Source: Candidatus Avispirillum sp. (lineage in GTDB: Bacteria > Bacillota > Clostridia > Oscillospirales > CAG-272). Taken from it: a DNA stretch of 64,000 nt. The notes beneath the pieces are model-generated. The model saw only the letters and a program-made list of their open reading frames with translations, made no database searches and had not been told where the DNA came from. The stretch is from positions 219 to 64,218 of the forward strand of contig JAZUGU010000039.1 of assembly GCA_045641325.1 (NCBI GenBank). The letters are read 5' to 3'. Position 1 is the first letter of the stretch, and each line of letters begins with the position of its first letter. This document shows positions 4,902 through 63,821 of the stretch, piece after piece. A program made the position numbers and the translations under genes.

Positions 4902-4977
4902 AGGGGTGTAGTTCAGTTGGTAGAACGGCAGTCTCCAAAACTGCATGTCCAGAGTTCGAGTCTTTGCGCCCCTGCCA
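4902..4977 (+). tRNA. tRNA-Trp (anticodon CCA)
   Basis: Cloverleaf folded by hand. Acceptor aggggtg/cgcccct, anticodon loop ctCCAaa, T-loop ttcgagt, encoded CCA. Confidence 0.95.
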
Positions 4978-6645: not shown

Positions 6646-6685
6646 AAAGCCGGCAGAAATTTCTGCCGGCTTTATATTATTTTTA
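6646..6685 (+). terminator. Intrinsic terminator
   Basis: agccggcagaa-at-ttctgccggct followed by a T-rich tail. Confidence 0.7.
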
Positions 6686-6694
6686 TAAAATGTA

Positions 6695-6723
6695 TTCAAA
6701 TCCGGAAAGGATTATGGTATAAT
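6695..6723 (+). promoter_or_regulatory. Sigma-A type promoter of the STAS operon
   Basis: TTCAAA, 17 nt spacer, TGgTATAAT. Confidence 0.55.
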
Positions 6724-6771
6724 ACCATTGGAATATTGTTAAAAGACAATGCTTAAGACCGGGAGGCTAAT

Positions 6772-7068
6772 ATGAATATTATTAAAAGCGGCGAAAACAA
6801 TGCTCTCACGTTTGCCATCGAGGGCAGACTGGATACCAATACCGCACCTCAGCTTGAGGCGGAGCTTGCGGGCGCACTTGAGGGTGTGACAGAACTGGTA
6901 TTTGATTTTGAAAAGCTGGAATACATATCTTCTGCGGGACTCCGCGTCATACTGTCCGTCCAGAAAGAGATGAAAAACAAGGGTACCTTTGTGATCAGAA
7001 ACGTCTGTGACGGTATTATGGACGTATTTGAAATAACCGGATTTTCCGATATTCTGACAATAGAATAA
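6772..7068 (+). CDS. STAS domain protein (anti-sigma-factor antagonist family)
   Basis: 98 aa. [12 protein letters not shown]...[13 protein letters not shown]...[10 protein letters not shown] matches the SpoIIAA/RsbV-type STAS pattern, including the serine position. Confidence 0.85.
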
Positions 7069-7082
7069 AAAAGGCGGGAATT

Positions 7083-7841
7083 ATGGAAAAATCATACCAT
7101 ATCGGCTTTGACGAGGGCCACGGCGCGCGCTATGCCATCCTTCCCGGAGATCCCGGAAGAGTGGAAGAAATAGCCGGCTATCTCGATAATCCCGGATTCC
7201 ATTGCAGACAGCGTGAATATACCACATGGCTCGGAGAGCTTGAGGGCGAAAAGGTACTGGTCATGTCCACCGGTATGGGAGGTCCTTCCACGGCGATCGG
7301 CGTGGAGGAGCTTTACAGGACCGGTGTGGATACCTTTATTCGTGTGGGCACGTGCGGCGCAATGCAGAAGGAGATCGTCGGAGGCGATATAGTTATCGCA
7401 ACCGGTGCCATTCGCATGGAGGGAACCACGAAAGAATACGTTCCCATAGAGTTCCCCGCAGTAGCCGATCTTGACGTGGCGAATGCTCTCGTCGGTGCGG
7501 CGAAAAAACTGGGGCATACTCATTATGCGGGTGTTGTGCAATGTAAAGATTCGTTCTACGGACAGCATGACCCGGACCGTATGCCCGCAGGCTATGAGCT
7601 CAACGAAAAGTGGAACGCATGGATCATGGCAGGATGCCTCGCATCCGAAATGGAGAGCGCCGCTCTCTATATCGTGTCATCCGTTCTTCGCGCCAGAGCC
7701 GGGGCGGTTTTCTCCGTCGTGTGGAACCAGGAAAGAGCAAAGCTCGGTCTTTCCAACCCCGAGATCCACGACAACAGCCGCTCCATTTCCACAGCTGTGG
7801 AAGCAATCAGAACACTGATACTCAAAGATAAAGCAGAATAA
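7083..7841 (+). CDS. udp: Uridine phosphorylase
   Basis: [34 protein letters not shown] and EMESAAL motifs are collinear with Udp/PNP-UDP family 1. Confidence 0.9.
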
Positions 7842-7854
7842 ACGAGGTCGATCA

Positions 7855-9027
7855 ATGAACTATACCGCAGAAAACGAAATACTGACTCTTTTCCTTTCCG
7901 GCAGGGTGGATTCTTCCAACTCCGATGCCGTATGCGCGGATGCAGAAAAAATCATCGCGGAAAATGCGCACACCGCTCTGGTGATAGATGCAGGCGAGCT
8001 TGAATATATCTCCAGCGCAGGACTCAGAGTCATTCTCAGAATAAGAAAAAGCGAGCCCACGCTCCGGATCATTAACGTTACCTCGGATATTTACGAGATA
8101 TTCGAAATGACGGGATTTTCCGAAATGATCCCCATCGAAAAAGCATATAAAGAGCTTTCCGTTGACGGATGCGAGATCATAGGCGAGGGCGCAAAGGGAA
8201 TAGTGTACCGTTATAACGACGATACGATCGTCAAAGTGTATAAGAATGCGGACAGCCTTCCGGACATACAGAACGAAAGAAAACTTGCAAGATGTGCATT
8301 CGTGCTCGGTATCCCCACAGCCATGTCTTACGATATCGTAAAAGTGGGCGAAAGCTACGGCTCCGTTTTCGAGCTTCTTTCCGCAAAGTCTTATTCCGAG
8401 ATGCTCGTGATAGATCCCGATAACCGTGATAAATATATTTCGGATTGTGTTGAGCTTCTTAAAAAGATCCACAGCACAAAGGTGAAAGCTGACGATATGC
8501 CCGATATGAAGATATTCGTCAGAGACTGGCTGAAAACCGCATCTCCTTTCCTCGAAAAAGACGATGCCGAAAAGCTTTCACGCCTTATAGAAGAGACACC
8601 CGATACAAGCACGATGCTCCATTGCGATTTCCATACGAACAATGTCATGAACCAGAACGGGGAAACGCTTCTCATCGACATGGACACGCTCAGCCACGGA
8701 CATCCTGTATTCGAGCTTGCCAATATGTACATAACGTACGTGGGCTTTGGAGAGCACGATCCGTCGATGGTCGAGAAGTTTCTGAAACTGCCCTATGATA
8801 CGGCAAAGTATATCTGGGACAGATCAATTGCTCTGTATCTCGGCACGGAAGACAAGGAGAAAATCGCCGTGGTGGAGAACAAAGCCAAGCTTATCGCATA
8901 CCTCAGGCTGGCCCGCCATTTTGCCCGCCGCGGAGACAGTATAAACGAAAAGGAACGTGAAACCATAAAATATGCCGCAGGGCGTATAAGAGAACTTATA
9001 GACGGTATAGATACCCTTGATTTCTGA
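7855..9027 (+). CDS. STAS domain fused to APH/choline-kinase-fold phosphotransferase
   Basis: Residues 1-95 are STAS ([23 protein letters not shown]). The rest has a kinase-like N-lobe (GEGAKGIVYR...VKVYK), a catalytic loop HCDFHTNNVM and LIDMD. Confidence 0.85.
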   Translation: MNYTAENEILTLFLSGRVDSSNSDAVCADAEKIIAENAHTALVIDAGELEYISSAGLRVILRIRKSEPTLRIINVTSDIYEIFEMTGFSEMIPIEKAYKELSVDGCEIIGEGAKGIVYRYNDDTIVKVYKNADSLPDIQNERKLARCAFVLGIPTAMSYDIVKVGESYGSVFELLSAKSYSEMLVIDPDNRDKYISDCVELLKKIHSTKVKADDMPDMKIFVRDWLKTASPFLEKDDAEKLSRLIEETPDTSTMLHCDFHTNNVMNQNGETLLIDMDTLSHGHPVFELANMYITYVGFGEHDPSMVEKFLKLPYDTAKYIWDRSIALYLGTEDKEKIAVVENKAKLIAYLRLARHFARRGDSINEKERETIKYAAGRIRELIDGIDTLDF

Positions 9028-9040
9028 AAGGAGAAATAAC

Positions 9041-9367
9041 GTGAAGCTTATAACCGCAATAATCAACAAAAGAGATTCCGGAGAAGTATGCCATTCTCTT
9101 TCCGAGGCGGGATACTACTTTACGAAAATCGCCACCTCCGGAGGCTTCCTCAGTTCGGGAAACGTAACGCTTCTCATCGGTACAGAGGATGAGAAGGTGG
9201 AGGGTGCCCTCGAGATCATCAGAAAGAATTCCGCGCAGAGAGTGGAGGCAGTCCCCGATGCATCCTACGGCGAGTCCGTCTCCTTCATTTCTCCGTCCCC
9301 CGTAACGGTTCCGGTAGGCGGCGCCACGGTGTTTGTGACTGACGTGTACCATTACGAAAAAATGTAA
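9041..9367 (+). CDS. darA: Cyclic-di-AMP receptor, PII-like (DUF970)
   Basis: KLITAII...FTKIATSGGFLSSGN...GGATVFV is collinear with B. subtilis YaaQ/DarA as I recall it. GTG start 9 nt after aaaGGAG. Confidence 0.9.
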   Translation: MKLITAIINKRDSGEVCHSLSEAGYYFTKIATSGGFLSSGNVTLLIGTEDEKVEGALEIIRKNSAQRVEAVPDASYGESVSFISPSPVTVPVGGATVFVTDVYHYEKM

Positions 9368-9373
9368 GGTGCG

Positions 9374-10051
9374 ATGGAACAGGAAAGAAAGTTCATCCCC
9401 AGATACAGCGGCACTCTACGAAGTCATATGCTTGACGTTCCCGCATCCATATACCAGTGCAGCGGCATCAGCATTTTCGGCAGGAGGATCAAGTCACTTG
9501 TGTTTTCCACCGATGTAGCCATAATCAAGAATATAAATACGGATGCCGTGATAGCGGTCTATCCGTTCACCCCTCAGCCCTCCATTTCGTCGGCGATAAT
9601 ATCTGTTGCCGATGCTCCCGTTTTTGTGGGCGTCGGCGGAGGCCTCACCTCAGGTGAAAGATCGGTGCGCCTTGCCGCGGAAGCGGAGGACAGTGGCGCT
9701 TTCGGCGTTGTGGTTAACGCCCCAATGCCCCCGGAAATCATCGAGAGGATCAAAAAGGTCGTGGATATTCCGGTGCTGGCAACGGTCGTCTCCGAAAAGC
9801 AGGATATCGATGACAGAATAAGTGCAGGTGCTGATATCCTTAACGTGTCCGCTGCTCTGAATACTCCCGCCGTTGTGGAGAGCATCAGAAAAAAGCACCC
9901 GGATATCCCTGTTATCGCCACCGGCGGCAATACTGATGAGACCATTCTCAGAACTATTGCTGCGGGGGCGAATTCCATAACTTATACCCCTCCGGCAAAC
10001 GGCGAACTGTTTGCCAAAACCATGGCAGAGTACAGGAAAAGATACGATTGA
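9374..10051 (+). CDS. TIM-barrel (phosphate-binding barrel-like) protein, function unknown
   Basis: Alternating beta/alpha pattern with VGVGGG and IATGGN glycine loops. Lies 6 nt after darA. Confidence 0.6.
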   Translation: MEQERKFIPRYSGTLRSHMLDVPASIYQCSGISIFGRRIKSLVFSTDVAIIKNINTDAVIAVYPFTPQPSISSAIISVADAPVFVGVGGGLTSGERSVRLAAEAEDSGAFGVVVNAPMPPEIIERIKKVVDIPVLATVVSEKQDIDDRISAGADILNVSAALNTPAVVESIRKKHPDIPVIATGGNTDETILRTIAAGANSITYTPPANGELFAKTMAEYRKRYD

Positions 10052-10052
10052 A

Positions 10053-10616
10053 ATGCAGAAAAAGAACAGGCTGAAACTGATATCAGAGCTTCTTCTGACC
10101 TTCATGAAAATCGGTGCTTTCACCTTCGGCGGCGGATATGCAATGATACCGCTGATACAGAAGGAGACCGCCGAGAAGAAAGGCTGGATCAGCGAGGAGG
10201 ACATACTTGACGTCGTGGCGATAGCGGAGTCCACTCCGGGACCGCTTGCGATAAATACCGCAACCTTTGTCGGATATAAGACGTGCGGCTTTTTCGGTGC
10301 CCTCGCCGCCACCTTCGGCGTGGTCTTCCCGTCGTTCATGATAATTTTCATAATATCTTTTGTGCTCCGCCAGTTTGAAAGCCTGCAGGCTGTGAAATAT
10401 GCTTTCTTCGGCATCCGTGCCGGCGTGCTGGCGCTCATATTAAAGGCACTTTGGTCAATGTATAAAAAGTGCCCGAAGGGTGCGGTATCATACGTGATCA
10501 TGGCACTCAGCTTCGCGGCGGCGACGTTTCTTGATATAAACGTCCTCTGGATCATAATAGGATGTGCCCTCATCGGGCTCGTTTCCTCCGTTATCATGAG
10601 GAGGAAAAACGTATGA
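10053..10616 (+). CDS. Chromate transporter (ChrA) family half-protein 1
   Basis: FTFGGGYAMIPLIQ and ESTPGPLAIN motifs. Multi-TM. Confidence 0.85.
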   Translation: MQKKNRLKLISELLLTFMKIGAFTFGGGYAMIPLIQKETAEKKGWISEEDILDVVAIAESTPGPLAINTATFVGYKTCGFFGALAATFGVVFPSFMIIFIISFVLRQFESLQAVKYAFFGIRAGVLALILKALWSMYKKCPKGAVSYVIMALSFAAATFLDINVLWIIIGCALIGLVSSVIMRRKNV

Positions 10617-11185
10617 TATATATCATCCTTTTCTGGACGTTCTTCAAGATCGGTGCTTTCACTTTCGGCGGCGGTTATGCAATGCTCCCGCTTATCCAGT
10701 CGGAGGTCGAAAGGATGGGCTGGATAGGGAATGCCGAGCTCATCAATTTCGTAGCCGTCAGCGAAAGCACACCGGGTCCGTTTGCTGTCAATATTTCCAC
10801 GTACGTGGGCAGAACAGTCGGCGGATTTTTCGGGGCTGTCAGCTCAACACTCGGCGTGGTAGTGCCGTCCTTCGTCATTATCCTCATCGTCGCACGGTGC
10901 TACGAAAGATTCAAGGAAAGCAAAACGGTAAAGGGCGTTATGTCGGGCCTTAAACCCGCCGTTATCGGGCTTATCGGCTCGGCGGTAGTTTCCGTTGGCA
11001 AGACGGTGCTCTTTCCCGCAGGCGTGTCGCTTTCCGTTTTCACGTCTCCCGCATTCTATATTTCTGTCGGAATAACGGCATTGTCGGTGTTCCTGTCTTT
11101 CAAAAAGACACATCCCATACTGATAATCCTTCTTTCCGCGGCAATAGGTATCGCCGCAGGATACGGATTACAACTCCCAATATAA
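10613..11185 (+). CDS. Chromate transporter (ChrA) family half-protein 2
   Basis: FTFGGGYAMLPLIQ and ESTPGPFAVN motifs. ATGA overlap with half 1. RBS gaggagg. Confidence 0.85.
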   Translation: MIYIILFWTFFKIGAFTFGGGYAMLPLIQSEVERMGWIGNAELINFVAVSESTPGPFAVNISTYVGRTVGGFFGAVSSTLGVVVPSFVIILIVARCYERFKESKTVKGVMSGLKPAVIGLIGSAVVSVGKTVLFPAGVSLSVFTSPAFYISVGITALSVFLSFKKTHPILIILLSAAIGIAAGYGLQLPI

Positions 11186-11188
11186 AAC

Positions 11189-11222
11189 GAAAAAGCCGCC
11201 CGGCAGGGCGGCTTTAGTATTT
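11189..11222. terminator. Bidirectional terminator (STAS operon / asnA)
   Basis: aagccgccc-ggca-gggcggctt flanked by A-run and T-run. Confidence 0.7.
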
Positions 11223-12412: not shown

Positions 12413-12442
12413 AAATTATAAATTTTCTTGTGTGAGGATAAG

Positions 12443-13015
12443 ATGAAGCTTCTTGAGGATCGTATAAAGAAAGACGGCATCGTCAGCGAGGGCGATGTGC
12501 TCAGCATCTCAAGCTTTCTCAATCATCAGATGGATATAGGTCTTCTCTGCGAGCTCGGACGTGAGTTCGAGAGGCTTTATCACGGAGAAAAGATCACCAA
12601 GATCCTTACCATAGAGGCATCCGGTATCGGCATCGCCTGTATTGCGGCACAGTATTTCGGCGTCCCGGTGCTTTTTGCAAAAAAAGGCCGCACCGATAAT
12701 ATCAGCACGGACGTGTATGCGACCAAGGTGTATTCGTATACCCACAAAAAAGAATACGGCGTAGTAGTATCTAAGGAATTTCTCAAAAAGGACGACAGAG
12801 TCCTCATCATCGACGACTTTCTTGCGACCGGTAACGCAGTAGTGGCACTTGCAGATCTGTGCCGCCTTGCGGGATGTGAGATCGCAGGCGTGGGTGCCGT
12901 CGTTGAAAAAAGCTACCAGAACGGCAGAGCACTGCTTGAAGAGATGGGCCTGAGAGTCGAGTCTCTCGCACGCATCAAATCCATGAGCGTGGAAAACGGC
13001 GTAGAATTCCTGTGA
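12443..13015 (+). CDS. xpt: Xanthine phosphoribosyltransferase
   Basis: MKLLEDRIKKDG..., PRPP motif VLIIDDFLATGN, about 190 aa. Confidence 0.9.
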   Translation: MKLLEDRIKKDGIVSEGDVLSISSFLNHQMDIGLLCELGREFERLYHGEKITKILTIEASGIGIACIAAQYFGVPVLFAKKGRTDNISTDVYATKVYSYTHKKEYGVVVSKEFLKKDDRVLIIDDFLATGNAVVALADLCRLAGCEIAGVGAVVEKSYQNGRALLEEMGLRVESLARIKSMSVENGVEFL

Positions 13016-13091
13016 TACTGCTTTTCATTTCCGGTTTTTATCGGGATTTTTTCCCGAAAAAATAAATTAATTTATTCGGAGGTATATCCCC

Positions 13092-14360
13092 ATGAACAGA
13101 AGAATTCTTTCCGTTCTTCTCGCGCTGGCTATGGTATTCACCATGCTCGCATTCGCTTCCTGCGGCAATGAGGCTGCACCTGAAGACAGCGAAAAGACCA
13201 CAGACACAACCGATGCAGCTCCTTTCAAGGCAGTTGAAAAGGCTGACCTCAAGATCGGTCTTATCACTCTTCACGATGACTCTTCCACCTACGACAAGAA
13301 CTTCATCGACGCTATGTACGCTGCTCTCGAGGAGCTCGGCATCGATAAGTCCCAGCTCGTTCTCTACACCGGCATCGCCGAGACCGAGGACTGCTACAAC
13401 AAGGCAAAAGACTGTGTAAACCAGGGCTGCCAGGTAGTATTCGCTGATTCCTTCGGTCATGAGGACTTCATGATCCAGGCTGCTATCGAGTTCCCCCAGG
13501 TTCACTTCTGCCACGCAACCGGCACGAAGGCTCACTCTGTCAACTATGACAACTTCTCCAACGCGTTTGCCGCTATCTACGAAGGCAGATACGCTGCAGG
13601 TATCGCTGCAGGTATGAAGCTGAACGAGATGATCGAGGCTGGCAAGATCACTGCAGAGCAGGCTGTTATGGGCTACGTTGGCGCATACACCTATGCAGAA
13701 GTTATGTCCGGATACACCTCCTTCTACCTTGGCGCGAAGTCCGTATGTCCTACCGTCACCATGAAGGTTAAGTTCACCGGTTCCTGGTATGACACCGATA
13801 AGGAAAAGGCAGCTGCAGAGGCTCTCATTTCCGAGGGCTGCGCACTCATTTCCCAGCACGCTGACTCCTACGGCGCTCCCGAGGCATGCGAGGCAGCAGG
13901 CGTTCCCAACGTTTCTTACAACGGCTCTACCATCACTGCGGGTCCCAACACCTACATCGTATCTTCCAAGATCAACTGGACTCCTTACTTCAAGTACATG
14001 ATCGAGACCACCATGGCAGGCGGCGTTATCGATAACGATTACACCGGCACCGTTGAGAGCGGTTCCGTCGAACTTCTCGAGGTAAACGAAGCTGTTGCAG
14101 CTGAGGGCACCCAGGAAGCTATCGACGAAGCTCTTGCAGCATTCAAGGCTGGCACTCTCCATGTATTCGATACCGAGACTTTCACCGTTGCAGGTGAGAA
14201 GCTCGAGTCCTACATGGCTGACGTTGATACTGATGAAGCATTCGAGAAGGACACCGAGGTTATTGCTGACGGTTACTTCCACGAGTCCGAGTTCCGTTCT
14301 GCTCCTTACTTCGACGTTGAGATCGACGGTATCGAGCTTCTGGACCGTAACTACGGCTGA
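13092..14360 (+). CDS. BMP-family (PnrA/Med-like) nucleoside-binding lipoprotein of ABC transporter
   Basis: Lipobox LAFASC and BMP-like core (GLITLHDD...GYVGAYTYAEV...SQHADS). Confidence 0.9.
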   Translation: MNRRILSVLLALAMVFTMLAFASCGNEAAPEDSEKTTDTTDAAPFKAVEKADLKIGLITLHDDSSTYDKNFIDAMYAALEELGIDKSQLVLYTGIAETEDCYNKAKDCVNQGCQVVFADSFGHEDFMIQAAIEFPQVHFCHATGTKAHSVNYDNFSNAFAAIYEGRYAAGIAAGMKLNEMIEAGKITAEQAVMGYVGAYTYAEVMSGYTSFYLGAKSVCPTVTMKVKFTGSWYDTDKEKAAAEALISEGCALISQHADSYGAPEACEAAGVPNVSYNGSTITAGPNTYIVSSKINWTPYFKYMIETTMAGGVIDNDYTGTVESGSVELLEVNEAVAAEGTQEAIDEALAAFKAGTLHVFDTETFTVAGEKLESYMADVDTDEAFEKDTEVIADGYFHESEFRSAPYFDVEIDGIELLDRNYG

Positions 14361-14375
14361 TTTGCAAACAGAATT

Positions 14376-14419
14376 GATAGCAAAGCGGGAATTCCCGCTT
14401 TGCTATCTTGTCTTTTTTT
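14376..14419 (+). terminator. Strong intra-operon hairpin/attenuator between the binding-protein and ATPase genes
   Basis: 14-bp perfect stem gatagcaaagcggg-aatt-cccgctttgctatc followed by ttgtcttttttt. Confidence 0.65.
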
Positions 14420-14445
14420 ATAAAAATCTATTCTGAGGAGTCAAG

Positions 14446-16044
14446 ATGGAAAAAGAAATAGCTCTCGAACTCCGTAATATTACTAAAAGATTCGGAACAA
14501 AGGTTGTCGCAAATAAAAACGTCAGCCTCACAGTATATAAAAATGAGATACTGTCTCTTCTGGGTGAGAACGGCTCCGGAAAGACAACGCTTATGAATAT
14601 GATCTCCGGCATCTATTTCCCCGATGAGGGCGAAATACTTGTAAACGGAGAGCCTGCCGTTATTGCCTCCCCTGCGGACGCATATAACTATAAGATCGGA
14701 ATGATCCATCAGCATTTCAAACTGGTGGAAACCTTTACCGCCGCCGAGAACATCATTCTCGGAAACGGTGAAAAATATAAACTGAAGAACGTAAATGCCC
14801 GTGTTTCCGAAATTGCGGCGAAATACGGTTTTGATATAGACCCCAAAAAGAAAATACATGAAATGTCTGTTTCCGAGAAACAGACCGTTGAGATAATCAA
14901 AGCGCTGTACAGAGGTGCGGATATCCTTATTCTGGACGAGCCCACCGCAGTGCTGACACCTCAAGAGATCGAGAAGCTGTTTGATGTGCTCCGCCGTATG
15001 AGAGATGACGGAAAAGCCGTTATCATCATCACCCATAAGCTCAACGAGGTGCTTGAGATATCCGACCGTGTCACCATTCTCCGTAAAGGCGAGTACATCG
15101 GTACCGTGCAGACAGCCGAAACCGATGAAAAAGAGCTCACGGAAATGATGGTCGGCAAAAAAGTGGACCTGAAGATCGAGCGCATAGATATCGAAAAGAA
15201 AAAGCCCCTTCTCGAGATCCGTGATCTCACCGTTAAATCCGATGCCGGGAACATTGCCATCAATAACGTCAGCTTCTATATCAGAGGCGGAGAGATCCTC
15301 GGCGTTGCGGGAATTGCAGGATGCGGACAGAAAGAACTCTGCGAGGCTATTGCCGGACTGAGAACTCCCGAAAGCGGACATATAATGCATAAGGGCGAAT
15401 CCATTGTAGGCCTGCCCGCAAGAGAGATCATCAAAAAGGGAATATCCATGAGCTTCATTCCCGAGGACCGTCTGGGAATGGGACTGGCTCCGTCCTTCTC
15501 CATGACGGACAACATGATGCTCAAAACGTATAACGACGGGATCACTCCTTTCGTGAACCGCAGAAGCGCACGTCAGAGAGCCCAGGCACTCATTGAAAAG
15601 CTGGGTATCGTCACTCCCTCAACGGAAACTCCCGTCCGCCGTCTATCCGGAGGTAACGTACAGAAGATCCTGGTCGGCCGTGAGATCGAATCCGGCCCCA
15701 ACGTTATCGTAACAGCATACCCGGTAAGAGGTCTTGATATCAATTCCTCATATCTTATTTACGATATTCTCAATGAGCAGAAAAAGAATGACGTCGGCAT
15801 TCTCTTCGTAGGCGAAGACCTTGACGTTATGCTGTCCCTCTGCGATAAGATCCTGGTCCTCTGCCACGGCGAGGTAATGGGCGTTGTCCATGCCAATAAG
15901 ACCACTAAAGAGGAGCTCGGCCTTATGATGACCGGATCTCTTGACTTAAAGCAGGAAAAGGAATACGGTAAAGCAAAAGACTCCAACCTTACCGAAGAAC
16001 AATGGAACGAAGCCAATGAGATCGCTGAAAAGGAGGACGAATGA
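14446..16044 (+). CDS. ABC transporter ATP-binding protein, duplicated ATPase (nucleoside/sugar type)
   Basis: Two ABC cassettes: GENGSGKTT...LILDEPT and LSGGNVQK.... Confidence 0.9.
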   Translation: MEKEIALELRNITKRFGTKVVANKNVSLTVYKNEILSLLGENGSGKTTLMNMISGIYFPDEGEILVNGEPAVIASPADAYNYKIGMIHQHFKLVETFTAAENIILGNGEKYKLKNVNARVSEIAAKYGFDIDPKKKIHEMSVSEKQTVEIIKALYRGADILILDEPTAVLTPQEIEKLFDVLRRMRDDGKAVIIITHKLNEVLEISDRVTILRKGEYIGTVQTAETDEKELTEMMVGKKVDLKIERIDIEKKKPLLEIRDLTVKSDAGNIAINNVSFYIRGGEILGVAGIAGCGQKELCEAIAGLRTPESGHIMHKGESIVGLPAREIIKKGISMSFIPEDRLGMGLAPSFSMTDNMMLKTYNDGITPFVNRRSARQRAQALIEKLGIVTPSTETPVRRLSGGNVQKILVGREIESGPNVIVTAYPVRGLDINSSYLIYDILNEQKKNDVGILFVGEDLDVMLSLCDKILVLCHGEVMGVVHANKTTKEELGLMMTGSLDLKQEKEYGKAKDSNLTEEQWNEANEIAEKEDE

Positions 16045-17144
16045 TGAAGACTAAACAGAAAACTCATGAGCCCCTTTTCCACGTAACGAAAAACGATGCG
16101 ATGCCCGTTAGCAAGTCCCTTGCCATCCGTGCACTTGCCGTCGTTGTCGCACTCATTATCGTCGGTATCCTCAGCGTTATCCTTATAAAGGAAAATCCGC
16201 TCAACATCTATAAAGCATTGTTTACCGGTGCCTTCATCGACGTGTGGACGCTTCTCCAGAACATAGCGCTCCTGCTCATGTTCGGCCTTGCGGTCATTCC
16301 TCCCTTCAAAATGAAGTACTGGAATATGGGAGCAAACGGACAGGTACTCGTGGGATGCCTTGCAGCGATAGCATGCATGAAATTCATCCCCGCATCATTC
16401 CCCCAGCTGTCCGATACAGTGATCATTATAATCATGATAGCTGCAAGTATTCTTGCCTCGGTTATCTGGTCCATTATCCCCGCGTTCTTCAAGGCGTATT
16501 TCAACGCAAACGAAACGCTTTTCACACTGATGATGAACTACATAGCGATTGCAGTTGTCGATTGCTTCGTGTTCAACTGGGATAAGAGCGGATCGGGAAA
16601 TATCGGTATCGTAAACCTTCTTACAAGAAGAGCATGGATCCCCACGGTTTATAATAACTACCTGCTTTCCGTTATAGTGGCAGTGGTGTTCACCGTGATC
16701 ATGTTCATCTATATGAGATATACCAAGCACGGCTTTGAGGTCGCTCTCGTCGGTGAAAGCGTGAATACCGCAAAGTACGTCGGTATCAACGTTAAAAAGG
16801 TTATCATCAGAACACTGGTATTCAGCGGTGTTATCTGCGGTGTGCTCGGCGTGCTTTACGCAGGTGCGATATCGCATACGGTAAATACCGCGGTAGGCGG
16901 CCTCGGATTCACGGCGATCCTGGTGGCATGGCTCGCAGGATTTGATCCTCTTGCAATGCTGTTCACGGCATTCTTCGTCGTGTTCCTCAATTCCGGAGCG
17001 GAAAACGTTTCCGTCGTGTTCCAGCTCAACAGTAACGACTATGCAAACATAGTCGTGGGAATTATCTTCTTCTGCGTCATCGGATGCGAATTCTTTATCC
17101 GCTACCGTATCATGCTGAATAAGAGCGGCAACCGCAATAACTGA
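16041..17144 (+). CDS. ABC transporter permease
   Basis: Multi-TM. ATGA overlap with the ATPase gene. Confidence 0.85.
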   Translation: MMKTKQKTHEPLFHVTKNDAMPVSKSLAIRALAVVVALIIVGILSVILIKENPLNIYKALFTGAFIDVWTLLQNIALLLMFGLAVIPPFKMKYWNMGANGQVLVGCLAAIACMKFIPASFPQLSDTVIIIIMIAASILASVIWSIIPAFFKAYFNANETLFTLMMNYIAIAVVDCFVFNWDKSGSGNIGIVNLLTRRAWIPTVYNNYLLSVIVAVVFTVIMFIYMRYTKHGFEVALVGESVNTAKYVGINVKKVIIRTLVFSGVICGVLGVLYAGAISHTVNTAVGGLGFTAILVAWLAGFDPLAMLFTAFFVVFLNSGAENVSVVFQLNSNDYANIVVGIIFFCVIGCEFFIRYRIMLNKSGNRNN

Positions 17145-17158
17145 AAGGAGAGAGTGCG

Positions 17159-18118
17159 ATGTTAACAACGATCATAGTAAACGCTATCCGTATGGGCACG
17201 ATCTTTCTTTTCGGATGTATCGGTGAGATCCTTACGGAAAAAGCAGGTAACTTAAACCTCGGTATCCCAGGCATCATGTGTATCGGTGCAACCGGCGGCG
17301 GCCTTGCGGTGTCACTGTATGCCGGTCATACGGCAGAGCCCAATTCCGCGATCCTCGTTATCCTTTCAGTCCTGTTCACAATGGTGTTCGCAGGTCTTGC
17401 AGGCCTTCTGTATTCGTTCCTCACGGTTTCGCTCAATGCTAACCAGAACGTTACCGGCCTTACAATGACGACCTTCGGCGTAGGCTTCATGAAATTCTTT
17501 TCCAAGAGGATCTACGACCAGAAGCTGTTCGTGTCCGTAAGCTATTGCTTCAAGAATCTGCTCGGTATGGACGGTAAAAAGGATGCCTTTTCGCAGATAT
17601 TCCTCAGCCACGGCGTTCTCGTGTATCTCGCCATCATCCTTGCGATCCTCGTAGCGCTGTTCCTAAATAAAACGAAATACGGTCTGTATCTCCGTGCCGT
17701 GGGCGAAAGCCCCGCAACGGCAGACGCCGACGGTATAAACGTTAAAAAGTATAAGTATGCATTCATAACTCTGGGCTCTGCCATCGCAGGTCTCGGCGGT
17801 CTGTATTATATTATGGACAGAAGCGCGGGAACACAGTTTGCGGAAGCGGCGATCGATTCCTTCGGCTGGCTGGCGGTTGCACTTGTAATTGCCTCTGTCT
17901 GGAAGCCTTTGTTCGCGATTGTAGGCTCATTCATTTTCGGCGGCCTTTCCATCATGGATGCACAGCTTACAACCCTGTCCCTGGCACAGCAGAAGCTGTT
18001 CGCAATCGTTCCGTTCCTTATCACGGTCATAGTGCTTATCGTGGTAAGTATGCTGAAGCTGAAAGACAATCAGCCTCCCGCATCTCTCGGCCTTCCTTAT
18101 TTCCGAGAGGACAGATAA
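17159..18118 (+). CDS. ABC transporter permease
   Basis: Multi-TM. Second permease of the BMP-type system. Confidence 0.85.
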   Translation: MLTTIIVNAIRMGTIFLFGCIGEILTEKAGNLNLGIPGIMCIGATGGGLAVSLYAGHTAEPNSAILVILSVLFTMVFAGLAGLLYSFLTVSLNANQNVTGLTMTTFGVGFMKFFSKRIYDQKLFVSVSYCFKNLLGMDGKKDAFSQIFLSHGVLVYLAIILAILVALFLNKTKYGLYLRAVGESPATADADGINVKKYKYAFITLGSAIAGLGGLYYIMDRSAGTQFAEAAIDSFGWLAVALVIASVWKPLFAIVGSFIFGGLSIMDAQLTTLSLAQQKLFAIVPFLITVIVLIVVSMLKLKDNQPPASLGLPYFREDR

Positions 18119-19080: not shown

Positions 19081-21915
19081 ATGAGCGTATATATCCATCT
19101 GTTGATTCTGGCTTTGTTTCCGGTAGCTTTCTCCGTAATTTTCTATTTTCTCAAAAGGAAAACACCGTTCGGAAGGCTGCCGTACGCCGTACAGCAGATC
19201 ATAATAGGAATAGTCTTCGGCGCAATAGCTGTGATCAATACCGAATTCGGAGTTGACGTGGGCGGAGCCACCGCAAACGCAAGAGATGCTGCCCCCCTCT
19301 GCGCCGGATTCATTTTCGGCGGTCCTGCCGGTATCATCGCCGGCGTTATCGGCGGTGTTGAACGCTGGTTTGCCGCATATTGGGGAGCAGGTGCCTATTC
19401 TCAGGTAGCCTGTTCTGTTTCCACGTTTCTCGCCGGTCTGTATGCCGCATTCCTCAGAAAATTCATGCTGGACAACAGGCGTCCTACGTGGGGATTCGGT
19501 GCCGCTACCGCTGTCGTTATGGAAATCATTCACATAACGGTCCTTGTGCTGACACATATTTCAGACCTGTCACGCGCATTTGACATAGTAAAGATCTGCA
19601 CACTCCCCATGGTCGTGAGCAATGCGGTGGCCGTGATGCTTTCCATCGTTGCGATAACGCTTTACAGTGCAAAGGCACATAAAAGCACCATAAGATATAA
19701 AAAAATATCGCAGCAGGTGCAGGCATGGCTTCTGGTCTGCGTCGTGCTCGCTTATTTTTTGACCACTCTGTTCGTATTCAGCCTCCAGACACAGACCGCA
19801 ATTTCCGACACCAAGAAAATGCTTTCGCTGAATCTTGCCGATGTCAAAGAAGACGTTATCAACACGTCCAATGAAAATCTTCTGAGAATAAGCCGTAAGA
19901 TCACCGTCGAGGTCAATAATAACCCCGATGTGGATCTGGAACTTCTCTGTGATAAATATGACGTTTCCGAGATCAACATAGTCAATACTTCAAATAAGAT
20001 CATAGTTTCAACCAATCCCGATTACGTGGGATTTGATATGATGTCCGGCAGTCAGTCTGCTGAATTTTCCGTGCTGAATAAAACAGAGCAGGAATGGGTG
20101 CAGAACTATTTGCCGACAACGTACGACCACAGCGTGTCCATGAAGTACGCGGGAATATCCATGGCAGGAAAGGGTTTTGTCCAGGTCGGATATAATGCGG
20201 ATAAATTTCAGGACGACCTTGCGATCCAGGTAAAGGGAAAAACCAAAAACCGTCACGTCGGAAACGACGGATATATGCTTATCGCCGATGACAGCAATGT
20301 GATCGTCAGCGCACCGTCAAAGCTTCTCGGCAAAGACGTCGTGGACGTTGTTGACATCAGTGAGGAATCTTCCTCTGATCTTTTCAAGCAGACGGTCAAC
20401 AGAGTAAAATCATACTGTATGTACACCAAGTCCGAAGGATTCACAATTATCGGTGTAGTCCCGGAAAGCGAGGTATTCTATACCCGTGACATAATGTCGT
20501 ACATCAATTCCTTTATGGAAGTTCTCGTATTTGCCTTTCTGTTCTTCTTCGTATATATGCTGATCAAAAAGCTGGTCGTTGATAAGATACGTATCGTCAA
20601 TGACAGCCTCGGAAGAATTATCGAAGGAGATATGGATGTTACCGTCAACGTCAGATCAAGTGATGAATTCTCATCTCTTTCCGATGATATAAACAGTACC
20701 GTCACAACGCTTAAGCATTATATTGACGAAGCTGCAACAAGGATTGACAAGGAGTTGGAATTTGCAAAGAACATCCAGCATTCCGCTCTGCCTTCCGTAT
20801 TCCCCGCATATCCTAATATAAAAGAGTTCGATATCCATGCGGCAATGGATACCGCCAAGGAAGTCGGCGGAGATTTCTATGATTTCTATCTTCTCGGTGA
20901 AGATAAGCTGGCATTTCTTATAGCTGACGTGTCAGGCAAAGGAATACCTGCGGCCATGTTTATGATGACCGCAAAGACCATGATTAAGAATTTCGCCGAA
21001 TCCGGTCTCGGAGTGGATGAGGTGTTCACCCGCGCCAATGAAAAGCTTTGCGAGGGCAACGATGCCGGTATGTTTGTTACGGCATGGATGGGCATACTGG
21101 ATATAAATACGGGCCACGTGACCTTTGCAAATGCGGGACATAATCCTCCTCTCATATACAGGAAAGGCTCAGGCTACGAGTATCTGAAATCCCGTGCGGG
21201 ATTTGTTCTTGCCGGAATGGACGGCGTAAAATATAAGCTTCAGGAATTTGATCTCTGTCCGGGTGACAAAATATATCTGTATACTGACGGCGTGACGGAA
21301 GCGACAGATAGTGAAAGCAAACTGTACGGCGAAGACAGACTGCAAAGGCTTCTCAATGCGAATACCGAAGACAGCCCCCAGGAATGTCTCAACAGAGTAC
21401 GCCGTGATATAGATGTATTTGTGGGTGAAGCCGAACAGTTTGATGATATAACCATGCTGTCCGTAGCTTTCAACGGAACGGAAAAAGGCGGTGCTGACGA
21501 TATGGAAATAGAAGAAAGAGTTTTTCCCGCAGAGGACGGCGCGCTGATGACGGCTACTTCATTTCTTGAAGAAAAGCTGGAGGAATGCGGCGCATCTATG
21601 AAGACGGTGATGCAGCTTTCCGTAGTTCTTGAGGAACTGTTCGTCAACGTGGCGCATTATGCATACCCGGATGAAAAAGGAACTCTTTCTCTCGGGCTCG
21701 GCTTTGACGTGAATACAAGGAATTTCATCATGAGATTTACCGATGAGGGAATACCGTTCGATCCATTGGCCAAGGAAGACCCGGACGTTACTCTGTCAGC
21801 CGACGAAAGAAATATAGGCGGTCTGGGGATCTTTATGGTCAAGAAGACAATGGACAGCGTAGAGTACGAGAGAACGGACGGCAAAAACGTACTCACTCTC
21901 AAAAAGACGATATGA
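19081..21915 (+). CDS. Membrane sensor: LytS-type 5TM domain + extracytoplasmic domain + HAMP + PP2C/SpoIIE phosphatase + RsbW-type GHKL kinase domain
   Basis: N-terminal TM bundle with ARDAAPLCAGFIFGGPAGIIAG. A second TM at about aa 480. PP2C motifs GGDFYDF, IADVSGKG, LYTDGVTEA and DDITML. C-terminal N-box EELFVNVAHYAY, G1 DEGIPFDP and G2 GGLGIFMV. Confidence 0.85.
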   Translation: MSVYIHLLILALFPVAFSVIFYFLKRKTPFGRLPYAVQQIIIGIVFGAIAVINTEFGVDVGGATANARDAAPLCAGFIFGGPAGIIAGVIGGVERWFAAYWGAGAYSQVACSVSTFLAGLYAAFLRKFMLDNRRPTWGFGAATAVVMEIIHITVLVLTHISDLSRAFDIVKICTLPMVVSNAVAVMLSIVAITLYSAKAHKSTIRYKKISQQVQAWLLVCVVLAYFLTTLFVFSLQTQTAISDTKKMLSLNLADVKEDVINTSNENLLRISRKITVEVNNNPDVDLELLCDKYDVSEINIVNTSNKIIVSTNPDYVGFDMMSGSQSAEFSVLNKTEQEWVQNYLPTTYDHSVSMKYAGISMAGKGFVQVGYNADKFQDDLAIQVKGKTKNRHVGNDGYMLIADDSNVIVSAPSKLLGKDVVDVVDISEESSSDLFKQTVNRVKSYCMYTKSEGFTIIGVVPESEVFYTRDIMSYINSFMEVLVFAFLFFFVYMLIKKLVVDKIRIVNDSLGRIIEGDMDVTVNVRSSDEFSSLSDDINSTVTTLKHYIDEAATRIDKELEFAKNIQHSALPSVFPAYPNIKEFDIHAAMDTAKEVGGDFYDFYLLGEDKLAFLIADVSGKGIPAAMFMMTAKTMIKNFAESGLGVDEVFTRANEKLCEGNDAGMFVTAWMGILDINTGHVTFANAGHNPPLIYRKGSGYEYLKSRAGFVLAGMDGVKYKLQEFDLCPGDKIYLYTDGVTEATDSESKLYGEDRLQRLLNANTEDSPQECLNRVRRDIDVFVGEAEQFDDITMLSVAFNGTEKGGADDMEIEERVFPAEDGALMTATSFLEEKLEECGASMKTVMQLSVVLEELFVNVAHYAYPDEKGTLSLGLGFDVNTRNFIMRFTDEGIPFDPLAKEDPDVTLSADERNIGGLGIFMVKKTMDSVEYERTDGKNVLTLKKTI

Positions 21916-22304
21916 ACGCAGTAGAGGTCGCCGCGGCACTGATATGGGATAACGGCAGGTTTATGATCTGTCAGAGACCTCCGCACAAGGCAAGAGGCAT
22001 GCTCTGGGAATTCGTGGGAGGAAAACTTGATCCGGGGGAAACCGGAGAGGAAGCTCTTATCCGTGAATGCATGGAAGAACTGGGCGTTACGGTATCACCC
22101 GAAAGCGTATTCTTCGACGTGATACACAAGTACCCGGATATCACGGTGCACCTTACCGTGTATAAAGCAAGCATTGCAAACGGAACACCGAGGCTTCTTG
22201 AACATAACGATATCAGATGGATCAAGCCTTCTGAAATACCGCAGTATGAGTTTTGTCCGGCGGACGTAGAAATTCTTGAAAAAATAACTGAACTGTACAG
22301 CTGA
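21912..22304 (+). CDS. NUDIX hydrolase (MutT-like)
   Basis: Nudix box GGKLDPGETGEEALIRECMEELGV. ATGA overlap with the upstream gene. Confidence 0.85.
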   Translation: MNAVEVAAALIWDNGRFMICQRPPHKARGMLWEFVGGKLDPGETGEEALIRECMEELGVTVSPESVFFDVIHKYPDITVHLTVYKASIANGTPRLLEHNDIRWIKPSEIPQYEFCPADVEILEKITELYS

Positions 22305-33263: not shown

Positions 33264-33340
33264 GAGGGTGTAGCTCAGCTGGTTAGAGTGTCTGCTTGAC
33301 ATGCAGAAGGTCGGTGGTTCGAGTCCACTCATCCTCACCA
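33264..33340 (+). tRNA. tRNA-Val (anticodon GAC)
   Basis: Hand-folded cloverleaf. Acceptor gagggtg/catcctc, anticodon loop ttGACat, T-loop ttcgagt, CCA encoded. Confidence 0.93.
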
Positions 33341-63229: not shown

Positions 63230-63306
63230 GGCGGAATAGCTCAGCTGGCTAGAGCAATCGGTTCATACCCGATAGGTCGTGGGTTCAAGTCCAACTTCCG
63301 CTACCA
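63230..63306 (+). tRNA. tRNA with CAT anticodon (elongator Met or Ile2; not initiator-like)
   Basis: Hand fold. D-arm gctc/gagc, anticodon loop ttCATac, T-loop ttcaagt, CCA encoded. The fold has a G-U at 1:72 and one G-A mismatch in the T stem. Confidence 0.8.
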
Positions 63307-63308
63307 AA

Positions 63309-63383
63309 GGCCCGTTGGTCAAGAGGTTAAGACACCGCCCTTTCACGGCAGTAACGGGGGTTCGATTCCCCCACGGGTCACCA
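63309..63383 (+). tRNA. tRNA-Glu (anticodon TTC)
   Basis: ggcccgttggtcaag...cTTTCAc...gggggttcgattcccccacgggtcacca. One C-A mismatch in the anticodon stem. Lies 2 nt after the previous tRNA. Confidence 0.88.
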
Positions 63384-63734: not shown

Positions 63735-63821
63735 TGGTGCGGGTAAGAGGACTTGAACCTCCACCGAGTTGCCCCGACTAGAACCTGAATCTAGCGCGTC
63801 TGCCAATTCCGCCATACCCGC
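63735..63821 (-). tRNA. tRNA-Leu (anticodon CAG), class II long variable arm
   Basis: Reverse complement is gcgggtatggcggaattggcagacgcgctagattCAGgttctag...ggaggttcaagtcctcttacccgcacca. Confidence 0.93.

Follow-up and report, generated by a model that had tools for sequence, protein, structure and literature searches.

A tightly packed seven-gene cluster in Candidatus Avispirillum: a likely mosaic operon carrying part of a probable STAS-APH kinase partner-switch module

Introduction

Seven tightly packed genes in a 64,000-nucleotide (nt) stretch of Candidatus Avispirillum sp. DNA (contig JAZUGU010000039.1; the whole stretch is called the window here, and positions are numbered within it) raise the question of whether genes that are packed together also work together. 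They encode two proteins with a STAS domain, one of them fused to an APH-fold kinase, a uridine phosphorylase (Udp), a protein resembling the cyclic di-AMP (c-di-AMP) receptors DarA and PstA, a TIM-barrel-like protein and two half-transporters of the CHR family. We consider it likely that the cluster is a genuine operon but an evolutionary mosaic of three units rather than a dedicated system. The first unit would belong to a sigma-independent partner-switching module, with the small STAS protein as its antagonist and the STAS-APH kinase as its output. The second, udp, would be a pyrimidine-salvage gene standing beside other nucleoside-salvage genes, and the third would comprise the DarA-like, TIM-like and two ChrA-type genes, which together with udp would form an older block specific to this clade. 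The novelty rests in the partner-switch module of the STAS-APH kinase, of which the window holds a dispersed copy.

Results and Discussion

Organization of the cluster

The first gene (6772-7068) encodes a 98-amino-acid (aa) protein with a single STAS domain and is followed by udp (7083-7841, 252 aa), the gene of the STAS-APH-fold kinase (hereafter STAS-kinase; 7855-9027, 390 aa), that of the DarA/PstA-like, PII-like protein and putative c-di-AMP receptor (9041-9367, 108 aa, GTG start), that of the TIM-barrel-like protein (9374-10051, 225 aa) and two genes for short-chain CHR-family half-transporters, chrN (10053-10616, 187 aa) and chrC (10613-11185, 190 aa). All seven open reading frames (ORFs) lie on the + strand, and the gaps between them (14, 13, 13, 6, 1 and -4 nt) agree exactly with those of an earlier reading made from the sequence only; the stop codon of chrN and the start codon of chrC overlap in the tetranucleotide ATGA. 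The DarA-like gene is taken to start at GTG 9041, where the program-made ORF list had TTG 9017, because its homologues are 108 aa long and a AAAGGAGA box lies 7 nt 5' of position 9041. A Shine-Dalgarno-like box is recognizable at six of the seven starts, the one before chrN being weak.

Upstream, a strong bidirectional hairpin terminator (6646-6673; 12-pair stem with 7 G-C pairs and a T-rich tail on the + strand) ends the preceding nitroreductase gene and sets the cluster apart. It is followed by a sigma-70-like promoter candidate on the + strand (6695-6723), in which TTCAAA and TATAAT, spaced by 17 nt, match the consensus at 10 of 12 positions and are accompanied by the TG of an extended -10 element. 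At the other end lies a second bidirectional hairpin (11192-11215; 10-pair stem, 7 G-C pairs), which is common to the cluster and to the convergent asnA gene and whose T-run is better on the - strand, that of asnA, and weak on the + strand. The sequence-only reading had proposed one promoter and one terminator. Both sites were found again, but a single promoter is too strong a claim, since weaker promoter-like matches occur inside the cluster too (for example 10531-10558, 10/12). Such consensus matches numbered 17, against 9.5 expected in shuffled sequence (about twofold), and chrC holds two weak terminator-like matches. Judging from these sequence features, the seven genes probably form one co-transcribed operon.

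The STAS-fused kinase and its conserved neighbors

Pfam and NCBIfam profiles bore out the earlier domain assignments (two STAS domains, an APH-fold kinase, Udp, DarA, a TIM barrel and a split ChrA), the TIM barrel through sub-threshold matches and an AlphaFold2 (AF2) model. The 98-aa protein is of the anti-sigma-antagonist type (Pfam STAS, 55 bits; TIGR00377, 63.9 bits with a cut-off of 53.45), and its S54 aligns with the phosphorylated serines S58 of SpoIIAA and S56 of RsbV. The 390-aa protein carries a STAS domain at residues 1-100 (46 bits) and a C-terminal APH domain (PF01636, 64 bits). When we aligned 21 STAS-kinases, we found that S53 and S54 are invariant, and a phosphorylatable serine is thus kept in both STAS domains. 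The G-rich loop, K127, E141, HCDxHTNN (256-263) and IDMD (274-277) of the APH domain are also invariant among these 21 homologues, so that the catalytic motif is intact; the catalytic loop of the protein in the window, HCDFHTNN, is of the HxDxxxxN type and is accompanied by the metal-binding Asp.

The AF2 model of the STAS-kinase has a predicted local distance difference test (pLDDT) score of 92. A Foldseek search with it gave as best PDB folds APH(2''), APH(3'), capreomycin phosphotransferase and methylthioribose (MTR) kinase (2pul, 2olc), all of them small-molecule kinases. The protein did not match the NCBIfam models of APH resistance enzymes (APH(2'')-Ie/IVa, 18 with a cut-off of 600; APH(6), 18 with 325; APH(4), 16.6 with 725), and it scored 114.2 bits, under the cut-off of 228.2, with TIGR02172, a Fibrobacter paralogous kinase-like family. 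Given these structural matches and the invariance of its catalytic residues, the APH-fold domain most likely acts as a small-molecule kinase. The family is large, with 678 clusters at 50% identity (E<=1e-30), mostly from gut and rumen Clostridia, and a literature search returned no account of a STAS-APH fusion, of its link to HD_4 proteins described below, or of a STAS protein with a small alarmone hydrolase.

To place the kinase in its genomic context, we scanned one genome per species and kept 80 STAS-kinase loci (48-63% identity, mostly metagenome-assembled genomes of Oscillospirales and Lachnospirales), the 80 top-scoring of over 560 hits, as in each of our homologue scans. These loci were searched with the proteins of the window and with representatives of recurrent neighbors, a gene counting as a neighbor when it lay at most 5 kilobases (kb) away. 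The commonest neighbor was an HD_4 protein of about 190 aa, present at 55 loci and directly upstream of the kinase at 53 of them, with a median gap of 14 nt. It is a stand-alone RelA/SpoT hydrolase domain, similar to small alarmone hydrolases (for example at 7421-7987 of locus L082), and its pairing with a STAS-kinase directly 3' of it appears to be undescribed. Membrane PP2C/SpoIIE phosphatases occurred at 36/80 loci, RsbW-like HATPase_c_2 domains, fused or free, at 42/80, and single STAS proteins at 38/80; in 31 of the 80 species the STAS gene lay directly downstream of the kinase, and these STAS proteins are 50-70% identical to the 98-aa protein of the window. The genes are associated in several orders (STAS-HD_4-kinase, PP2C-HD_4-kinase-STAS, STAS-HD_4-kinase-PP2C-RsbW and kinase-PP2C-HD_4), and we therefore argue that HD_4, PP2C, STAS-kinase and STAS are functionally linked. 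The small STAS protein and the STAS-kinase appear to be the only part of the cluster that is conserved across bacteria, within a module widespread in Clostridia.

The other genes of the cluster hardly accompany the kinase. Udp and ChrA were each found at one of the 80 loci, the TIM-like protein at none, and DarA-like genes at two, where they lie 3.5 kb off on the opposite strand. The sequence-only reading had taken the seven genes for one signalling cassette and had asked whether DUF970 (DarA), the TIM-barrel gene and split chrA co-occur with the kinase across genomes; the answer is 2, 0 and 1 of 80. The full seven-gene set occurred at none of the 80 STAS-kinase loci and at none of the 80 loci of TIM homologues that are described below. 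The gene order turned out to be unique to the strain or its clade, with homologues of the STAS-kinase, TIM-like and DarA-like proteins scattered in other contexts and with five- and six-gene versions in relatives.

We thus regard it as very unlikely that the seven products form a single cassette in which STAS phospho-switching makes a ChrA-type transporter respond to the status of nucleosides or c-di-AMP. The operon-like packing and translational coupling would suit such a cassette, as would the six-gene version kept in a second species (locus L081) and a further locus (L071) where a STAS-kinase, a STAS protein and ChrA stand together. Against it, the kinase has different, strongly conserved partners of its own, and close relatives have versions of the cluster that lack one or both STAS genes.

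The neighbors also bear on the reaction that the APH-fold domain catalyzes. It might be a protein kinase that acts on STAS proteins in place of a GHKL-type anti-sigma kinase, so that the module would be a self-contained phospho-switch: its fold is that of the eukaryotic-like kinases, NCBIfam gave weak matches to the spore-coat kinases CotS and CotI, and an RsbW-like domain lies nearby at only 42 of the 80 loci. However, the nearest solved folds are all small-molecule kinases, and the commonest neighbor is a nucleotide hydrolase (HD_4) and no protein substrate. In addition, the RsbW-like serine-kinase domain and PP2C recur as neighbors and are present in the window, so that a classical kinase is not missing. 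We hold a protein kinase to be quite unlikely, and a small-molecule kinase is the reading that we follow below.

A candidate membrane sensor encoded downstream

The probable kinase and phosphatase of the switch are encoded 8 kb downstream of the operon, where a gene on the + strand (19081-21915) specifies a 944-aa membrane protein whose profile matches combine 5TMR-LYT (88.3 bits), SpoIIE/PP2C (178.6 bits) and an RsbW-like HATPase_c_2 domain (75.6 bits). Its best partial match in NCBIfam is SiaA. Over its full length it is about 50% identical to PP2C-RsbW proteins whose genes adjoin those of HD_4, STAS-kinase and STAS in other genomes, and from this homology we infer that it is the input of the partner switch, acting on both STAS domains. 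No sigma factor was found among the seven products (Pfam, NCBIfam) or in the annotated recurrent neighbor clusters c1, c2, c3 and c5; cluster c4 looked like an ABC transporter on visual inspection. The earlier statement that neither a sigma nor an anti-sigma factor is present is thus correct for sigma factors in the cluster, but it missed the anti-sigma-type kinase and the PP2C phosphatase fused at 19081-21915.

The module could work as follows. A membrane signal perceived at 5TMR-LYT would change how the activities of the RsbW-like kinase and the PP2C phosphatase are balanced, the former phosphorylating Ser54 of the free and the fused STAS domain and the latter stripping the phosphate. The state of Ser54, together with competition between the free and the fused STAS, would then determine whether the C-terminal APH-fold domain is on or off. 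In this scheme we infer both which protein phosphorylates which and that the substrate of the kinase is a small molecule.

The start of a MutT/NUDIX_4 hydrolase gene (21912-22304, +) overlaps the stop of the PP2C-RsbW gene, so that a further nucleotide hydrolase is coupled to the switch protein in a region without the usual HD_4 partner; homologues of HD_4, holB and PSP1 were all absent from the 64-kb window.

That the substrate of the kinase is derived from a nucleotide or from ribose is an attractive speculation, because a RelA/SpoT-type hydrolase is nearly always beside the kinase, because the kinase has two independent adjacencies to PNP_UDP_1-family genes (Udp in the window and a DeoD-type gene at locus L002), and because its fold resembles that of methylthioribose kinase. 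At L002 the DeoD-type purine nucleoside phosphorylase gene (9216-9929) lies 46-64 nt 3' of the STAS-kinase gene, depending on the start codon. One could go further and picture the STAS-APH kinase phosphorylating a ribose-containing small molecule (a nucleoside, nucleotide or alarmone-like compound) with HD_4 as the opposing hydrolase, which would make a new, signal-gated make-and-break pair for a messenger or metabolite derived from a nucleotide; in the clade of the window, Udp would have taken the position of HD_4 and the DarA-like gene would have become co-transcribed, tying the switch to pyrimidine salvage and c-di-AMP. The gene order is STAS-HD_4-kinase at loci L048 and L078 and STAS-Udp-kinase in the window. 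We regard this extended picture as distinctly improbable.

The Udp, DarA-like, TIM-like and CHR genes

Udp passes the TIGR01718 equivalog (300.5 bits with a cut-off of 280.3) and belongs to pyrimidine nucleoside salvage. A nucleoside-salvage cluster on the + strand (12428-18118), syntenic in loci L081 and L165, gives udp a local metabolic context; it consists of genes for a phosphoribosyltransferase (12428-13015), a Bmp/PnrA-type binding protein (13092-14360), an ABC ATPase (14446-16044) and two ABC permeases (16041-17144 and 17159-18118).

The DarA-like protein matches CdAMP_rec (PF06153) over residues 1-107 with 106.6 bits (cut-off 27) and aligns over its full length with the structures of Lmo2692 (4rww), YaaQ (4rle) and PstA (4d3g), with E values from 8e-25 to 3e-18. 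The GGFL ligand-binding motif is kept, TKIATSGGFL aligning with TKLATTGGFL of Lmo2692; a GGFL-to-AAAA mutant serves as a probe of c-di-AMP binding (PMC13484208). The protein did not reach the NCBIfam DarA equivalog (108.3 bits, cut-off 140), and we call it a putative c-di-AMP receptor. Its homologues with 55-63% identity stand in the canonical darA-holB-PSP1 context, in AP-endonuclease-darA-pta-ackA and in two further contexts. The sequence-only reading had described DarA as lacking a firmly settled target, which needs an update, since a 2026 preprint reports GlnR as a target of PstA in S. aureus (PMC13484208). A 2025 paper ties PstA to thymidine starvation and thymineless death in Listeria and suggests an unidentified connection to pyrimidine salvage (PMC12802241), which makes the adjacency of udp and the DarA-like gene noteworthy and nothing beyond that.

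No Pfam family covers the 225-aa TIM-like protein, which has only sub-threshold matches to TIM barrels and bears the NCBI name 'hydrolase'. The family is 70-80% identical across many Clostridia, and the mean column identity among 20 homologues is 79%; it is thus a very conserved protein with no Pfam model and no label beyond 'hydrolase'. Its AF2 model (pLDDT 71, poor at residues 43-67) resembles generic TIM barrels with a TM score of about 0.5 and no specific family, and a profile search of the PDB gave only weak, partial matches to IMPDH, NanE, DHODH and HisF. An identity as G3P_antiterm was considered and is unconfirmed (22.9 bits, cut-off 27). When we searched 80 metagenomic loci of TIM homologues by tblastn (58-72% identity, partly redundant), the other six genes were absent from all of them, out to 6 kb. 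The gene is solitary among housekeeping genes in three further lineages, the usual upstream gap being 280-450 nt. A pairing of TIM and DarA at loci L178 and L179 was rejected, the 225-aa neighbor of darA without Pfam domain being unrelated to TIM (E 0.24).

The two CHR proteins each have one Pfam Chromate_transp domain (181.9 bits in the 187-aa and 164.3 bits in the 190-aa protein) and did not reach the NCBIfam ChrA/ChrB equivalogs (68-89 bits, cut-off 250).

One might suppose that the DarA-like protein serves, in dependence on c-di-AMP, as a dedicated regulator of the adjacent ChrA/ChrA pair, the TIM enzyme or both, with the STAS genes as unrelated hitch-hikers. PII proteins commonly regulate transporters encoded alongside, as in GlnK-AmtB and SbtB-SbtA. 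In the same direction, the order DarA-like-TIM-ChrA-ChrA is found in three species-level lineages (identity to the window 79-91% for DarA-like and 80-91% for TIM), the ligand-binding motif is conserved, and the place beside udp would fit what is reported of PstA in Listeria, a link to thymidine starvation or to the salvage of pyrimidines (PMC12802241). The arrangement is, however, confined to one narrow clade. Homologues of DarA of up to 63% identity sit in five other contexts and those of TIM of up to 78% are solitary, so that the pattern is indistinguishable from inherited synteny. We consider such a regulator unlikely, and prefer to read the DarA-like, TIM-like and ChrA genes as one part of a mosaic. 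A DarA/PstA homologue beside udp and an anion transporter is nevertheless a clade-specific candidate pairing at a time when PstA targets are only now emerging.

Stepwise growth of the operon

Close relatives of the window hold shorter versions of the cluster. Locus L165, where TIM is 80% identical, has Udp-DarA-TIM-ChrA-ChrA-asnA without any STAS gene, and L081 has nitroreductase-Udp-STASkinase-DarA-TIM-ChrA-ChrA-asnA without the small STAS gene, so that five, six and seven genes form a series among close relatives; the arrangement was met only in the clade of the window. An older, clade-specific block Udp-DarA-TIM-ChrA-ChrA would have stood beside the nucleoside-salvage genes, the STAS-kinase gene would have been inserted into it first, and the small STAS gene would have been added later. 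Stepwise insertion seems the simplest history of the cluster, and the series is a worked example of an operon growing by insertion. When we compared the window with L081, most flanking genes were 87-93% identical, with lower values for ChrC (77%), nitroreductase (71%) and the STAS-kinase (73%; 7855-9027 in the window and 8001-9173 in L081). Either the kinase gene has evolved faster or it was acquired separately, as the lower identity of the STAS-kinases suggests.

An island acquired by horizontal transfer was considered and rejected, since the guanine plus cytosine (G+C) content of the cluster genes (0.44-0.54) brackets the window mean (0.484) and the flanks, including an upstream tRNA gene, are syntenic with relatives. 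This tRNA gene (4902-4974) lies about 1.8 kb 5' of the operon, and the L081 cluster likewise has an upstream tRNA gene; the window has five tRNA genes (4902-4974, 33264-33337, 63230-63380 and 63738-63821). At the Rfam gathering threshold, the window and five related loci gave tRNAs only, with no riboswitch or RNA element 5' of the operon or of solitary TIM genes, and PADLOC returned no anti-phage defence matches for the seven products and the 944-aa protein.

Several points weigh against this mosaic reading. The tight spacing and the start/stop overlap mean that the products are made together, and a lineage-specific functional link between them is possible. The STAS-kinase gene sits precisely between udp and the DarA-like gene, a place that at least two species-level lineages have kept, and its insertion there might have been selected rather than neutral. 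The DeoD-type gene at L002 is a second, independent adjacency of PNP_UDP_1 and STAS-kinase and as such a hint of a link to nucleosides. In three related genomes (L001, L003 and L082) a CdAMP_rec gene and the STAS-kinase gene lie 3.5 kb apart, a proximity that also speaks for the single cassette discussed above; at these loci (4143-7236 in L082) the CdAMP_rec gene seems to share an operon with DUF1854 and a fused ABC exporter, oriented away from HD_4-STASkinase. For a tie between the 944-aa protein and the STAS genes of the window, the argument is its homology to genes that are adjacent elsewhere. Sampling has its part too, through the limit of 80 loci in each scan, the redundancy of the TIM loci, and the ChrA neighborhoods, which were not sampled independently. 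With these points counted, the mosaic operon remains the reading that we consider likely.

The STAS-fused APH-fold kinases thus emerge as a large, unstudied family within a sigma-less partner-switching module that comprises a fused PP2C-RsbW sensor and a hydrolase of the RelA/SpoT type.

Comparison with known systems

The juxtaposition of a PNP_UDP_1-family enzyme and an APH-fold kinase recalls the methylthioadenosine nucleosidase MtnN and the 5-methylthioribose kinase MtnK. Here, however, the enzyme is a Udp equivalog, hence a phosphorylase and not a hydrolase, and the kinase is fused to a STAS domain and has HD_4 as its usual neighbor, which leaves a resemblance only. The DarA-like protein has the same length as the DarA/PstA receptors and keeps their GGFL motif, but it stays under the NCBIfam DarA equivalog cut-off, and the canonical darA-holB context, kept by related Oscillospiraceae, is absent at the gene in the window. 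YwrA/YwrB (Chr3N/Chr3C) of B. subtilis is reportedly a short-chain CHR pair. Like it, chrN and chrC are two adjacent, overlapping genes for proteins of about 190 aa with one Chromate_transp domain each; in our case there is no chrB-type regulator or chromate context, and the scores are far under the ChrA/ChrB equivalogs.

With the SpoIIAA/SpoIIAB/SpoIIE and RsbV/RsbW/RsbU systems of Bacillus, the module shares a single-domain STAS protein with a phospho-serine, an HATPase_c_2 kinase domain and a SpoIIE/PP2C phosphatase. It differs in that kinase and phosphatase lie outside the operon, fused in one membrane protein, in that neither the operon nor the annotated conserved neighbors include a sigma factor as target, and in that the presumed output, an APH-fold kinase, bears a second STAS domain of its own. 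SypE of Vibrio fischeri likewise has an RsbW-like kinase and a PP2C phosphatase in one protein, which controls the single-domain STAS protein SypA and a non-sigma output (PMC4517449, PMC10120452). SypE has a receiver domain, whereas the protein in the window has a 5TMR-LYT membrane sensor, and SypA is without a STAS-enzyme fusion partner, whereas the STAS protein in the window is paired with one. In the SiaABCD system of Pseudomonas aeruginosa, a PP2C phosphatase and a kinase govern a small switch protein and, through it, an enzyme, the diguanylate cyclase SiaD, with no sigma factor (PMC7647112, PMC8457831); SiaC binds the enzyme in trans, whereas here the APH-fold kinase is covalently fused to STAS. 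In working logic, SypE/SypA and SiaABCD come closest to the module. They are among the few partner switches with enzymatic outputs, and a switch with a small-molecule kinase under its control would enlarge this repertoire.

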